64,000 nucleotides of DNA from Mycolicibacterium smegmatis. Lineage in GTDB: Bacteria > Actinomycetota > Actinomycetes > Mycobacteriales > Mycobacteriaceae. The position numbers and the translations under genes are program-made. Each line of letters starts with the position of its first letter. Position 1 is the stretch's first letter. Of this stretch, positions 2,491 through 33,891 are shown in pieces. Location: contig NZ_LN831039.1 of the NCBI RefSeq assembly GCF_001457595.1, positions 1,652,729 to 1,716,728 on the forward strand, given 5' to 3'. The notes under the pieces are model-generated. The model had not been told where the DNA came from. It worked only from the letters and a program-made list of their open reading frames with translations, and did not search any database.

Positions 2491-3288
2491 GTGATCAATC
2501 TGCGTGGAAGACGTAAGCCCAAGGTGGTCACGCAACGCACGTCCGCGGAACTGGACGCCATGGCGGTGGCCGGTGCGCTCGTCGCGTCGGCCCTGCGGGC
2601 CGTCAAGACCGCGGCCGCACCCGGCGTCTCCACCCTGGAACTGGACCGCATCGCCGAAACGGTCATCCGCGACGGCGGCGGCACGCCGTCGTTCCTCGGC
2701 TACCACGGCTTCCCGGCCAGCATCTGTGCGTCGGTCAACGAACGCGTGGTGCACGGCATCCCCTCGGCCGACGAGGTGCTGGCCGCCGGCGACCTGGTCT
2801 CCATCGACTGCGGCGCGATCGTCGACGGCTGGCACGGCGACTCCGCCGTGACATTCGGCGTCGGCCCGCTGATCCCTGCCGACGAGGCCCTATCGGAGGC
2901 GACCAAGGCCGCCATGGAGGCAGGCATCGCCGCAATGGTGCCCGGCAACCGGCTCACCGACGTCTCGCACGCCATCGAGGTGGAGACGCACGCCGCCGAG
3001 AAGCGCGACGACCGCAAGTACGGCATCGTCGCCAACTACGGCGGACACGGGATCGGACGCCAGATGCACATGGATCCGTTCCTGCCCAACGAGGGCGCCC
3101 CGGGCCGCGGACCGTACCTGGCCCCGGGTTCGGTGCTGGCCATCGAACCGATGCTGACCCTCGGCACCACCAAGACCGTGGTGCTCGACGACGAGTGGAC
3201 CGTGGTCACCGCCGACGGCACCCGCGCCGCCCACTGGGAGCACACCGTCGCCGTCACCGAGGACGGCCCCCGCATCCTGACGCAGTAA
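2491..3288 (+). CDS. map: type I methionine aminopeptidase
   Basis: GTG start. Metal-binding residues in the [14 protein letters not shown] and HGIGR contexts. 265 aa. Synteny secY-adk-map. Confidence 0.9.
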
Positions 3289-3351
3289 CACCTTCAGCAA
3301 TTGCTGGAAAGCGCCGGAACCGTGATGTGGTCGACAGGCGCAAAGGTGTAA

Positions 3352-3379
3352 TGAACTGGATCACGCCCAACGTCGTATC
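3352..3379 (+). promoter_or_regulatory. putative SigL-type (ECF) promoter upstream of sigL: TGAACT-N16-CGTATC
   Basis: -35 TGAACT at 3352-3357, a 16-nt spacer, -10 CGTATC at 3374-3379, 17 nt before the sigL ATG. It is a near match to the SigL consensus found exactly at 4765-4792. Confidence 0.4.
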
Positions 3380-3396
3380 AATGACGGAGGTTGGGA

Positions 3397-3939
3397 ATGG
3401 AGGATCCGGAGGCCGCCATGATGCGGGCGCTCTATGACGAGCACGCCACCGCACTGTGGCGATACGCGCTGCGCCTGACCGGCGACCCCGCGCGTGCCGA
3501 GGATGTCGTGCAGGAGACATTGCTGCGCGCCTGGCGCCACCAACCCGACCTCCGCACCGGTGGCGGAGCCGACGGTATCGCCGGTCCCGACCGCTCGCCA
3601 CGGGCCTGGCTTTTCACCGTGGCACGCAACATGATTATCGATGAACGACGGAGTGCTCGTTTCCGCAACGAGACCGACGTCCCCGACCCAGAACAGGTGG
3701 CCGATCACGCCACCTCCGACCAGGTGGATACCGCGTTGGACCGGCTTTTGTTGGGCACAGCTCTACGCCAGCTCTCCGATGACCATCGTGCGGTGATCCG
3801 ACGCGCCTACTACCAGGGACTGACCACCGGGCAGATCGCGGCCGAGCTGCAGATACCCGAGGGAACCGTGAAATCGCGGCTGCACTACGCCGTGCGCGCA
3901 CTGAAACTGAGCTTGCAGGAGATGGGGGTGACACGATGA
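3397..3939 (+). CDS. sigL: ECF RNA polymerase sigma factor SigL (sigma-70 regions 2 and 4)
   Basis: ATG 3397 is preferred over TTG 3391 (GGAGG at 3386-3390). Region 2.2 (ALWRYALRLTGD) and region 4 HTH (GLTTGQIAAELQIPEGTVKSRLHYA). Order map-sigL-rslA as in Rv0734-Rv0736. Confidence 0.85.
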   Translation: MEDPEAAMMRALYDEHATALWRYALRLTGDPARAEDVVQETLLRAWRHQPDLRTGGGADGIAGPDRSPRAWLFTVARNMIIDERRSARFRNETDVPDPEQVADHATSDQVDTALDRLLLGTALRQLSDDHRAVIRRAYYQGLTTGQIAAELQIPEGTVKSRLHYAVRALKLSLQEMGVTR

Positions 3940-31210: not shown

Positions 31211-32791
31211 CTACTCGGCCGGCGCGGTCGCCGCGATGTCGCCGTTGGTGGCAGGCGGCGTGGACACGTTGGACCCGTTCGGGCCGGTCGACGCGCCGGA
31301 GCCGCCCAGCAGGGCAGCGACGTCGACGCCTGAGCTCTTGAGCGACTCGATGATCTTGGCGACGGCGAGCGGGCTGACGCCCAGCAAACCGCCCACGGCG
31401 TCCTGGGTGTCGCCGGAGCCACCGATGATCGACAGTCGCTCGATCTCGGCGAGCGGGGAGGCGGCCGCCTCGGTCGCTTTGACGACCGAATTGAGCACGT
31501 CGGGCAGCATCAGCAGGCGGGCCGCATCGGCCGTGTAGCTGTTGAGCGCCGCGGCTATCTCCTTCTTACCGTTGGCCTCGGCGAGCAGCTTGGCCTCGAT
31601 ACCGGCGGCCTCGGCTTGCTGCTCGACGCGCAGCGCGTCGGCGAGTTCCTTCTTACCTGCGGCCTCGGCGACCAGGTTGGCCTGCAGCGAGTCGGCCTCG
31701 GCCTGACGCTCGACGCGCAGCGCGTCGGCGGCGGCCTTGCGGGCGTCGGCCTCGGCCTGACCGGCGCGGCGCTTGGCCTCCGCGGCGGCCTCGGCGGCCA
31801 GGATCGCGGCCTGGCGCTGGCCTTCGGCGCGGGCGACGTCGGCCTGGCGCTGCGCCTCGGCGGGCGCGATCACGTCGGCCTGCAGTGCGGCCTGTGCCTG
31901 CTCGCTGCGGCGCTGCTCGACCTCGATGCGGGCCTGCACGCGCGCGGCCTCGGCCTGCTCGATCGCGATGCCGACGTCCTTCTGTGCGCGGGCGTTGGCC
32001 AGCGGGCCGGCCTGATCGGCCTGGGCGTTCTCGGCCTCGGTCTGTGCACGCAGGCGGGCGAGCTCGACGTCGCGTTTCTGGTTGGCCGACGCGATGGCGG
32101 TGTCGGCCTCGGCCTGGGCGATCGACCCTTCCTGACGGGCCTTGGCGGACTGGATCTGGGCGTCGCGTTCGGCCTCGGCGGTGCCGACGGTGGCGTCGCG
32201 CTTGACCTCGGCGATGCGCCGCTGACCCAGCGACTCCAGGTAGCCGTTGCGGTCGGAGATGCCCGCGATCTTGAGGACGTCGACCTCCATGCCGATGCGC
32301 GCCAGGTCGGCGCCGGCCTCCTCGACCACGCTGCGGGCCAGGGTGTCGCGGTTGGAGTTGAGGTCCTCGACGGTCATGGTCGCGGTGATGCCGCGGAGGC
32401 TTCCGGCCAGGATCTCGTTGATCTGGCGTTGCAGTTCGTTGAGGTCGGAGGTGAGGAAGCGCTGCACCGCGGTCTGCACGGCCTCGTCGGCCGAGCCGAT
32501 GCGGACCAGGCCGACGGCCTCGACGTTGACCGGGACACCGTTGTTGGACAACGCGTTCTGCAGGTTGATGCTCACGTTGAACGGCTCGAGGCTCATGATG
32601 TCGACGCGCTCGATGCCGGGCATGCGGAAGCGGGCCCCGCCGCGCACGACCTTGGGTGCGCCGCGGCCGGTGAACACCGCGACCTCGTTCGGCGGCACCT
32701 TGATGTAGTTCTTGACGTAGATCAGTGGCACCACGACCAGGATCAGGATGGCCGCGATGGCGGCCAGGACGACGATGAGCAGCGTGGACAC
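31211..32791 (-). CDS. flotillin / SPFH (band 7) domain protein
   Basis: N-terminal TM segment, SPFH domain, long Ala/Glu-rich coiled-coil with EA repeats. 526 aa. Confidence 0.9.
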   Translation of the reverse strand: MSTLLIVVLAAIAAILILVVVPLIYVKNYIKVPPNEVAVFTGRGAPKVVRGGARFRMPGIERVDIMSLEPFNVSINLQNALSNNGVPVNVEAVGLVRIGSADEAVQTAVQRFLTSDLNELQRQINEILAGSLRGITATMTVEDLNSNRDTLARSVVEEAGADLARIGMEVDVLKIAGISDRNGYLESLGQRRIAEVKRDATVGTAEAERDAQIQSAKARQEGSIAQAEADTAIASANQKRDVELARLRAQTEAENAQADQAGPLANARAQKDVGIAIEQAEAARVQARIEVEQRRSEQAQAALQADVIAPAEAQRQADVARAEGQRQAAILAAEAAAEAKRRAGQAEADARKAAADALRVERQAEADSLQANLVAEAAGKKELADALRVEQQAEAAGIEAKLLAEANGKKEIAAALNSYTADAARLLMLPDVLNSVVKATEAAASPLAEIERLSIIGGSGDTQDAVGGLLGVSPLAVAKIIESLKSSGVDVAALLGGSGASTGPNGSNVSTPPATNGDIAATAPAE

Positions 32792-32815
32792 GGTGGTGGC
32801 CTTTCTACGGCTGGA

Positions 32816-33313
32816 TCAGGGCTCGGGTACTGCGACGACGTGGACCGAATCGGCGTCGATGTCGGCGATGTAGACGCGGGTGGATTTCGGCAGCGGCGTG
32901 GGTTCGTCGCTCTTGGCGCGGGAGAAGACGCGGTTGCCGTCGGCGTCGACGAACGACACCTCGCCCCATCCGCCCGCAGGGACTTCGAGGGTGACCGTGC
33001 CGAGCAGTCCTATGTAGGACGACCGGCCGCGGTGTGAGTTGGCCTGCTGCTTGCGCAGGTAGGGGAGCAGTGCGCCGTTGAGCACGAACGCCAGGCCCAG
33101 CGCGCTCGCGCCGGCGAGCAGGGCCGTGGGAACCGTGCCGAGCCCGCCCCAGATGCCGAGCAGGCCGCCGGTGCCCGCGCCGACCAGCGCAGCCGAGATG
33201 CCGGTGAGGCTCAGGAAGGGCATGCCGTCGCCGTGGCCGACGTCGGCGAGCAGCAGAGCGGTCAGAACGGAAACGCCGCCGACGATGAACGCCGCCAAGT
33301 ACACAGCCGTCAC
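32816..33313 (-). CDS. NfeD-family membrane protein (flotillin partner)
   Basis: GTG 33313 with GGAGA RBS. The ORF track starts at 33376. Hydrophobic N-terminal half. C-terminal OB-fold-like segment. Confidence 0.7.
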   Translation of the reverse strand: MTAVYLAAFIVGGVSVLTALLLADVGHGDGMPFLSLTGISAALVGAGTGGLLGIWGGLGTVPTALLAGASALGLAFVLNGALLPYLRKQQANSHRGRSSYIGLLGTVTLEVPAGGWGEVSFVDADGNRVFSRAKSDEPTPLPKSTRVYIADIDADSVHVVAVPEP

Positions 33314-33669
33314 GTGTTGTCGTCTCCGGTCTCGCGTCGGGGCAGCGCGGTTCGAAACGGGCCGCTCACGGACCATGACCCCCGAGTCCGCGAGCGACGT
33401 GGCTCACTGCACACATTCTCTCGTGCCGACGGGCCACCTGTGCGCACTATTATTTTTCTGCGGTGCTGGCCAGCCGCGATTTCGGTGGATTTTGGCGATG
33501 GCCGATCAGCGGGTATTGTGGACCAACGGTGCGGTCTCCGTGCTGACTTTTTGCGTGCCCGTCCAGGAGTTCCTGGAATTCTGTCGATTCGGCTCACGTT
33601 CACAAGTCGGATGGATGCTGCGCCAGGCGGGCGCACGATACGAAACGAAAGCAAGGATCGCCAGACAGT

Positions 33670-33891
33670 ATGGCCAAGAAAGACGGTGCCATCGAGGTCG
33701 AGGGCCGCGTGATCGAACCTCTGCCCAATGCGATGTTCCGCATTGAGTTGGAGAACGGACACAAGGTTCTGGCCCACATCAGCGGCAAGATGCGGCAGCA
33801 CTACATCCGCATCCTGCCCGAGGACCGCGTCGTGGTGGAGCTCTCTCCGTACGACCTGTCCCGGGGCCGCATCGTGTACCGGTACAAGTGA
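33670..33891 (+). CDS. infA: translation initiation factor IF-1
   Basis: [42 protein letters not shown]. 73 aa. Confidence 0.97.

Follow-up and report, generated by a model that had tools for sequence, protein, structure and literature searches.

An uninterrupted spc-alpha neighbourhood in Mycolicibacterium smegmatis, probably split in tubercle bacilli by a chromosomal inversion at the rmlC-mmsA slot

Which came first in mycobacteria, the ribosomal spc and alpha operons held together in one neighbourhood or the widely separated halves of this neighbourhood in Mycobacterium tuberculosis, and where and how was one layout made from the other? The question is raised by a stretch of 64,000 nucleotides from Mycolicibacterium smegmatis (NZ_LN831039.1, positions 1,652,729 to 1,716,728; the whole stretch is called the window below), in which map, at the end of the spc operon, and infA, at the head of the alpha operon, both lie on the + strand and are separated by 30,381 bp (3289-33669). 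A first-pass annotation, made from the letters of the window, had put this gap at about 30.4 kb on one strand and had listed in it sigL-rslA, two-component systems, mms genes, rmlCB, genes for luciferase-like monooxygenases (LLM) and flotillin, and all of these are indeed there. We consider it very probable that the window shows an uninterrupted mycobacterial neighbourhood, which tubercle bacilli later split by a chromosomal inversion at the slot between rmlC and mmsA.

Contiguous and split arrangements

The RmlC, MmsB and Adk proteins of M. tuberculosis were taken from PDB alignments and searched again, and the loci were fetched via clusters. In the complete genome CP041865.1 (4.41 Mb), cutinase genes are followed by truA, rplQ, rpoA, rpsD, rpsK, rpsM, rpmJ and infA (3,888,132), with rplQ to infA reading towards truA, and then by LLM, rmlB and rmlC (3,890,534-3,891,142), which read towards rmlC. 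After rmlC come a DUF222 gene and genes for an NAD-epimerase, an HMGL-like protein, a thiamine pyrophosphate (TPP) enzyme, a cupin, a SnoaL-like protein, a hydrolase, a major facilitator superfamily (MFS) transporter, PE and PPE. The DUF222 gene is the REP13E12 element Rv3466-67 (PMC13061034), and rmlC is the last conserved gene before this foreign flank. The other side was found in CP180704.1, where phoR-phoP, a hypothetical gene, a transposase fragment, PPE and PE_PGRS precede mmsA (848,932-850,464)-fadE9-mmsB, with a PIN/ribbon-helix-helix pair and two large genes beyond mmsB, and in CP002095.1, where secY-adk (827,864)-map-sigL-rslA is followed by a 70-aa TPP_enzyme_N remnant, MarR and more genes up to an ISL3 transposase. 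The latter locus and the mms locus have an overlap that is 99.9% identical.

The two halves in the M. tuberculosis complex, secY…mmsA at about 0.83-0.85 Mb and rmlC…truA at about 3.88-3.89 Mb, are thus about 3.04-3.06 Mb apart, close to the 3 Mb that the first-pass annotation had given for the secY…mmsA and rmlC…rplQ-truA sides, and both of them map to the one locus in the window. With regard to strand, secY (+) and mmsA (-) stand as in the window, while rmlC (+) and infA (-) are flipped. The mmsB-fadE9-mmsA orthologues are 72-83% identical to those of the window. We take the counterparts in strain H37Rv to be Rv0732-Rv0753c (secY…mmsA) and Rv3465-Rv3455c (rmlC…truA). As a separate observation, a 312-bp repeat coding for DUF7956 occurs at 95.8% identity near Rv0740 and directly 3' of mmsB in the M. 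tuberculosis complex (L105 15926-16237; L097 10902-11213), and the mmsB gene of CP180704.1 was called as a 402-aa fusion running into it.

The generality of the contiguous order was surveyed by a scan with RmlC over one genome per GTDB species, and the loci were mapped by tblastn with all window proteins. We counted rmlC and mmsA as contiguous when they were no more than 10 kb apart in the same relative orientation. The top match of the scan was only 76% identical, and the window's own species and M. tuberculosis were not among its returns. As complete genomes nearly identical to the window do exist (L008, L012), its species seems to be absent from the scanned collection or masked there. The order infA…LLM-rmlB-rmlC-slot-mmsA-fadE9-mmsB…marR…map was found contiguous in 48 Mycobacteriaceae loci, including that of the slow grower M. 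asiaticum, and also in M. lacus, M. riyadhense, M. spongiae and an M. marinum-type genome, which is compact (map-infA 11.7 kb). Because contiguity extends over the 48 species and these four genomes, parsimony supports the contiguous order as ancestral to the M. tuberculosis state. The first-pass annotation had supposed the same, and its view is now backed by this sample together with the nearest relatives of M. tuberculosis.

The length of the spacer has a different history. The InfA protein of the window is identical in many Mycobacteriales and was used to find outgroup-type genomes. Three of them, of 5.5-5.9 Mb, carry secY-adk-map-(dtd, opposite strand)-infA with map and infA about 705 bp apart, and another one of 3.6 Mb has a gap of 223 bp; over the outgroup-type genomes (L006, L009, L011, L014) the gap is 223-709 bp. 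We regard them as outgroups because they share with the window only 61-76% identity in SecY, Adk and Map. In mycobacterial loci with both genes in range the map-infA distance is 6.3-17.9 kb, and the 30.4 kb of the window is the largest. Since map and infA are nearly adjacent in the outgroups, the 30-kb spacing itself is, as judged from gene order, derived, a lineage-specific accretion on an originally adjacent pair. The spacer would have grown from a map-infA pair 0.2-0.7 kb apart; a core insert, present in nearly all mycobacteria sampled, would have comprised marR, mmsB-fadE9-mmsA, rmlC-rmlB and LLM genes, and further modules would have been added lineage by lineage up to the M. smegmatis spacer. 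Several modules (sigL-rslA, a thiamine diphosphate (ThDP) enzyme cassette, a GAF histidine kinase/LuxR/HAD set, a cyclic nucleotide monophosphate (cNMP)-binding kinase with its response regulator, and flotillin-NfeD) have been gained or lost between species.

The time of the split can be bracketed by its distribution. An M. canettii-like genome (OU916761.1), 97.6-98.9% identical to M. tuberculosis, is likewise split and shares the derived junction, in which rmlC is followed by 577 bp and then by the same Rv3468c-like genes as in M. tuberculosis. REP13E12 is absent from it (L095 10907-11959 versus L106 5031-5608). The same genome also has no PPE gene after PE31. As the M. canettii-like genome is split, the event falls on the stem of the tubercle bacilli, and the gene orders support a date later than the divergence from M. 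lacus, M. riyadhense and M. spongiae and earlier than that of M. canettii.

Position and nature of the break

To the spc side of the break, the final conserved block is mmsB-fadE9-mmsA (12809-16412, -), which consists of valine-catabolism genes, and to the alpha-operon side the nearest one is rmlC-rmlB-LLM-LLM (24432-27853, -). In blastn, M. tuberculosis and M. lacus are homologous up to the stop codon of rmlC and then again from a point 62 bp upstream of mmsA, and the limits for M. riyadhense and M. marinum are similar to these. The comparison supports one M. tuberculosis breakpoint within 16413-24431 of the window, between the rmlC 3' end and mmsA, and its most likely place is just outside the approximately 60 bp preceding mmsA. 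These limits agree with the earlier placement between mmsA (16412) and rmlC (24432). The accompanying description of the region as rich in TetR accessory genes stood in part: three of its eight genes are for TetR, but the cargo is lineage-specific and has no part in the break.

The slot ranges from 68 bp to 9.2 kb across 52 loci, and its cargo differs per species: an MFS transporter in the M. marinum-type genome, a DUF222/HNH gene in M. lacus, an amidase in M. riyadhense and MerR-DUF1490-P-type ATPase in M. spongiae (L104 10639-13709). The M. spongiae genes look like a metal-resistance module. Such variable content between conserved flanks is a feature of genomic islands and of hotspots for site-specific integration. 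On the other hand, there is no tRNA in the window, no mobility gene in the slot by Pfam, and no atypical composition of the slot, whose guanine-plus-cytosine (GC) fraction of 0.69-0.70 equals that of the flanks. The flanking repeats, which the first-pass annotation had singled out for inspection, are only short and at chance level at the window slot. At the two M. tuberculosis junctions there is no homologue of the eight slot genes of the window, of the M. marinum MFS gene or of the M. riyadhense amidase. Neither a repeat nor a tRNA nor a mobile element accounts for the break.

We propose that, on the stem to the M. tuberculosis complex and M. canettii, the chromosome would have inverted with one breakpoint in the intergenic slot, from the rmlC 3' end to the mmsA promoter region, and that rmlC…infA…rpoA…ESX-4 would have been carried to about 3.89 Mb on the opposite strand. 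The M. tuberculosis layout, mmsA / phoPR-side…ESX-4-truA-rpoA-infA-LLM-rmlB-rmlC / Rv3468c-side, with slashes at the junctions, fits exactly what is expected from a single inversion of a segment starting at rmlC. The inverted segment extends over 0.85-3.89 Mb of 4.41 Mb, with a midpoint by coordinate at about 2.37 Mb. We infer one inversion that would span the terminus, with its ends at roughly equal distances from it, and that would have kept the alpha operon co-oriented with replication.

Several facts weigh against this account. Only one breakpoint was mapped, and the second is expected between the Rv0756c-phoPR and Rv3468c sides. The phoPR locus of M. wolinskyi keeps Rv0756c-phoP-phoR with no Rv3468c…kgtP homologues within 10 kb, and because the homologues of the M. 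tuberculosis rmlC flank are missing there, the inversion in a single step is no more than a proposal; the MhpE, IlvB2, KgtP and Rv3472 clusters have tubercle-bacillus members only. The M. tuberculosis coordinates come from the three complete assemblies (CP041865.1, CP180704.1 and CP002095.1) and not from one genome. In addition, in six mycobacterial loci the 10 kb around rmlC do not include mmsA, which could reflect larger islands or independent breaks, and two of these (L052 and L060) have a sigma factor, P-type ATPase, ABC transporter and kdp genes beyond rmlC.

Part of this evidence would be accommodated if the separation in M. tuberculosis had come about by several rearrangements, either inversions nested in one another or a translocation combined with an inversion, rather than by one terminus-spanning inversion. 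The reciprocal junction could not be reconstructed, the mmsA junction is flanked by lineage-specific PE_PGRS, PPE and an insertion sequence (IS) fragment, and the rmlC junction is flanked by REP13E12 and an island in which the 90% clusters of MhpE and IlvB2 are confined to tubercle bacilli. We still regard such a history as unlikely, as the strand flip and the block order fit a single inversion exactly and no extra break is seen inside either conserved block.

A somewhat less likely proposal concerns the cause of the break, which would have been homologous recombination between dispersed repeats (REP13E12/DUF222, IS copies or PE_PGRS) in the slot and at a distant site. Such elements are near: REP13E12 (Rv3466-67) directly follows rmlC in M. 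tuberculosis (PMC13061034), the M. lacus slot has its DUF222/HNH gene, and a transposase fragment and PE_PGRS/PPE flank M. tuberculosis mmsA. However, the M. canettii-like genome has the derived junction without REP13E12, the DUF222 proteins of M. tuberculosis and M. lacus give no tblastn match and are in opposite orientations, and only weak PE-type similarity was detected by blastn between the two M. tuberculosis junctions. With no tblastn match between REP13E12 and DUF222 of M. lacus or M. riyadhense, no such element at the M. canettii-like junction and only PE-type motifs shared, we rejected a repeat-mediated break as unsupported. That the split order is ancestral and the contiguous one derived is scarcely credible and is effectively refuted by the taxon sampling, as contiguity in fast and slow growers alike and in the species closest to the M. 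tuberculosis complex, with map and infA adjacent in outgroups, would need many parallel re-joinings at the same base-pair-level junctions, and nothing was found in favour of it.

Returning to the single inversion, a broader and only tentative idea is that the rmlC-mmsA slot may be a recurrent, element-independent site of insertion and rearrangement across Mycobacteriaceae, and its inversion a clean synapomorphy of tubercle bacilli that moved rpoA and the alpha operon. On this reading the inversion, which M. lacus, M. riyadhense, M. spongiae and M. marinum do not have, would mark the M. tuberculosis complex plus M. canettii. Moreover, rpoA and the alpha operon would have moved from about 0.85 to about 0.52 Mb from coordinate 1, which could affect gene dosage in a slow grower.

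Gene content of the window

Genes were called by third-position GC and then by NCBIfam and Pfam scans of the window, the GC content of which is about 68%. The spc end is in canonical order on the + strand (562-3288) with NCBIfam equivalogs for secY (562-1929, TIGR00967), adk (1926-2471, NF001381) and map (2491-3288, TIGR00500, 1.6e-78). The alpha operon keeps the order infA-rpmJ-rpsM-rpsK-rpsD-rpoA-rplQ on the same strand (33670-37483), with infA (33670-33891, TIGR00008, 3.5e-37), rpmJ (33974-34087), rpsM (34274-34648), rpsK (34654-35070), rpsD (35096-35701), rpoA (35793-36845) and rplQ (36920-37483), followed by truA (37470-38378, +), all of them NCBIfam equivalogs. About 30 unrelated genes on both strands fill the spacer between map and infA, so that the spc and alpha operons do not directly adjoin. 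Proteins of the locus are mostly 97-100% identical in CP102342.1 and CP089233.1 and 86-98% in CP012150.1, and the closest named RmlC is that of M. goodii (87% identity).

Directly after map stand genes for a SigL-like extracytoplasmic function sigma factor (3391-3939, +; NF007227, 1.6e-81) and a zf-HC2 anti-sigma factor, rslA (3936-4667, +; NF052375). This module is variable and, in our comparison of loci, not next to map in several species. Between rslA and marR (9332-9853, +) lies a conserved cassette of four overlapping genes on the + strand, for a ThDP enzyme (4822-6570), a 226-aa protein without family match (6551-7231), a FabH-like beta-ketoacyl-acyl carrier protein synthase III (7228-8262) and a HisC-like aminotransferase (8262-9296), assigned like MarR by Pfam/NCBIfam. 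It is kept in M. lacus, M. riyadhense and several fast growers, and only the 70-aa TPP_enzyme_N remnant occupies its site in the M. tuberculosis complex (L105 12826-13038). Then follows a module that, by its distribution across the loci, belongs to fast growers (9905-12728): a GAF-HisKA_3 histidine kinase (9905-11146, -), a LuxR-type response regulator (11143 to about 11805, -; delimited with gene calls on identical contigs) and a HAD hydrolase (11904-12728, +), all by Pfam.

The mms genes, identified by Pfam, are mmsB (12809 to about 13690, -), which matches PDB 5y8g (2.2e-138), the fadE9-like acyl-CoA dehydrogenase gene (13698-14885, -) and mmsA (14892-16412, -). The eight slot genes, also assigned by Pfam, are for a flavin adenine dinucleotide monooxygenase (16566-18077, +), TetR (17999-18673, +), EamA (18958 to about 19830, -), TetR (19833 to about 20420, -), peptidase S58 (20548-21657, +), an amino-acid permease (about 21654-23081, +), TetR (23088-23684, -) and a nitroreductase (23737-24435, +). 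Beyond them are rmlC (24432-25034, -), which matches PDB 1pm7 (4.2e-88), and rmlB (25034-26029, -), both found by the TIGR01221/TIGR01181 scan, and two LLM genes (26056-26922 and 26936-27853, both -; PF00296). The last block before infA (27934-33376, -) has, by Pfam, a cNMP-binding HATPase protein (27934-29406), a response-regulator/Pyr_redox_2 fusion (29416 to about 31107), flotillin (31211-32791) and an NfeD-like protein (32816 to about 33313, with gene calls on near-identical genomes). Its two modules, cNMP-HATPase/response regulator-Pyr_redox_2 and flotillin-NfeD, are variable and were not seen in the slow growers sampled. In most fast growers the former pair (27934-31107) is conserved beside the LLM genes. 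The Pyr_redox_2 domain of the fusion is thioredoxin-reductase-like, and it is unusual for a response regulator to have a flavoprotein as its output domain.

Downstream of truA, Pfam detected three tandem cutinases (38375-40519), EamA, ABATE/zf-CGNR and ABM (within 38375-52248) and a complete-looking ESX-4 locus (42686-52248), 4 kb past truA and after the cutinases, with EccB (42686-44095), EccD (45385-47007), EccC (46814-50452) and two WXG100 genes (51550-52248). This layout is common to M. tuberculosis and M. lacus, and the context at 38375-52248 corresponds to the Rv345x-Rv344x side of M. tuberculosis.

Some further observations were made in other mycobacteria. Full-length DUF222/HNH genes with about 60% mutual identity lie between rmlC and mmsA in M. 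lacus (L101 10640-12109) and between infA and LLM in M. riyadhense (L102 5865-7403), a placement that suggests a mobile element favouring this neighbourhood. A protein of about 500 aa with only a Sigma70_r2 domain is encoded near mmsA or rmlC in some genomes (L007 2550-4103; L010 2636-4087; L052 11272-12789), and in L007 and L010 rmlCB is altogether missing from the neighbourhood. In a Mycobacterium sp. with an Adk that belongs to the 90% cluster of M. tuberculosis (L107), a 1243-aa Ser/Thr-kinase/STAND/WD40 protein comes directly after rslA (12859-16590), with no MarR or mms genes within 10 kb.

Comparison with known systems

The finding is already known in kind, as the gene orders of M. tuberculosis and M. 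smegmatis can be read from long-published annotations and from any genome alignment. Large inversions between mycobacterial genomes are familiar, and this is an ordinary rearrangement of genomes that have been studied very closely. A literature search that included papers on M. riyadhense, the M. tuberculosis-associated phylotype (MTBAP) lineage and M. spongiae gave no explicit account of the inversion or its breakpoint. Our study adds a base-pair-level position for one breakpoint, a dating of the event and a view of the spacer as accretion. Such details could be of use as a structural marker of the tubercle-bacillus lineage, but no new biological question is opened by them.

Large replication-symmetric inversions between related bacterial genomes, known as X-alignments, are a general phenomenon. 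The proposed inversion resembles them in being multi-megabase and terminus-spanning and, if the origin is near coordinate 1, in leaving a highly expressed operon on the leading strand. It differs from their description in that one of two breakpoints was mapped here and no repeat was found at the breakpoints.

The H37Rv loci hold orthologous genes, with internal order kept in each half and protein identity of 66-99%. M. tuberculosis is without the ThDP/FabH/HisC cassette (except for the remnant), the GAF histidine kinase/LuxR/HAD set, one LLM gene, the cNMP kinase/response regulator-Pyr_redox pair and flotillin-NfeD, and has instead PE_PGRS/PPE genes, a toxin-antitoxin pair, IS elements and REP13E12 insertions. 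The compact slow growers (M. marinum-type, M. asiaticum and M. spongiae) have the same core as the window, map-sigL-rslA-marR-(MDMPI)-mmsB-fadE9-mmsA-slot-rmlC-rmlB-LLM-LLM-infA, whereas their spacer is only about 11.7 kb and the slot holds MFS (M. marinum-type) or MerR-DUF1490-P-type ATPase (M. spongiae) and not eight genes. In comparison with the canonical S10-spc-alpha cluster, the window has the same gene order on one strand at the spc end and in infA…rplQ, but the operons are no longer joined end to end, since a stretch of 30.4 kb lies between them, made up of unrelated genes of which many read from the opposite strand. Such a loss is not exceptional, as 115 rearrangements of the cluster were counted in 204 genomes (Brandis 2021, PMC8046335).

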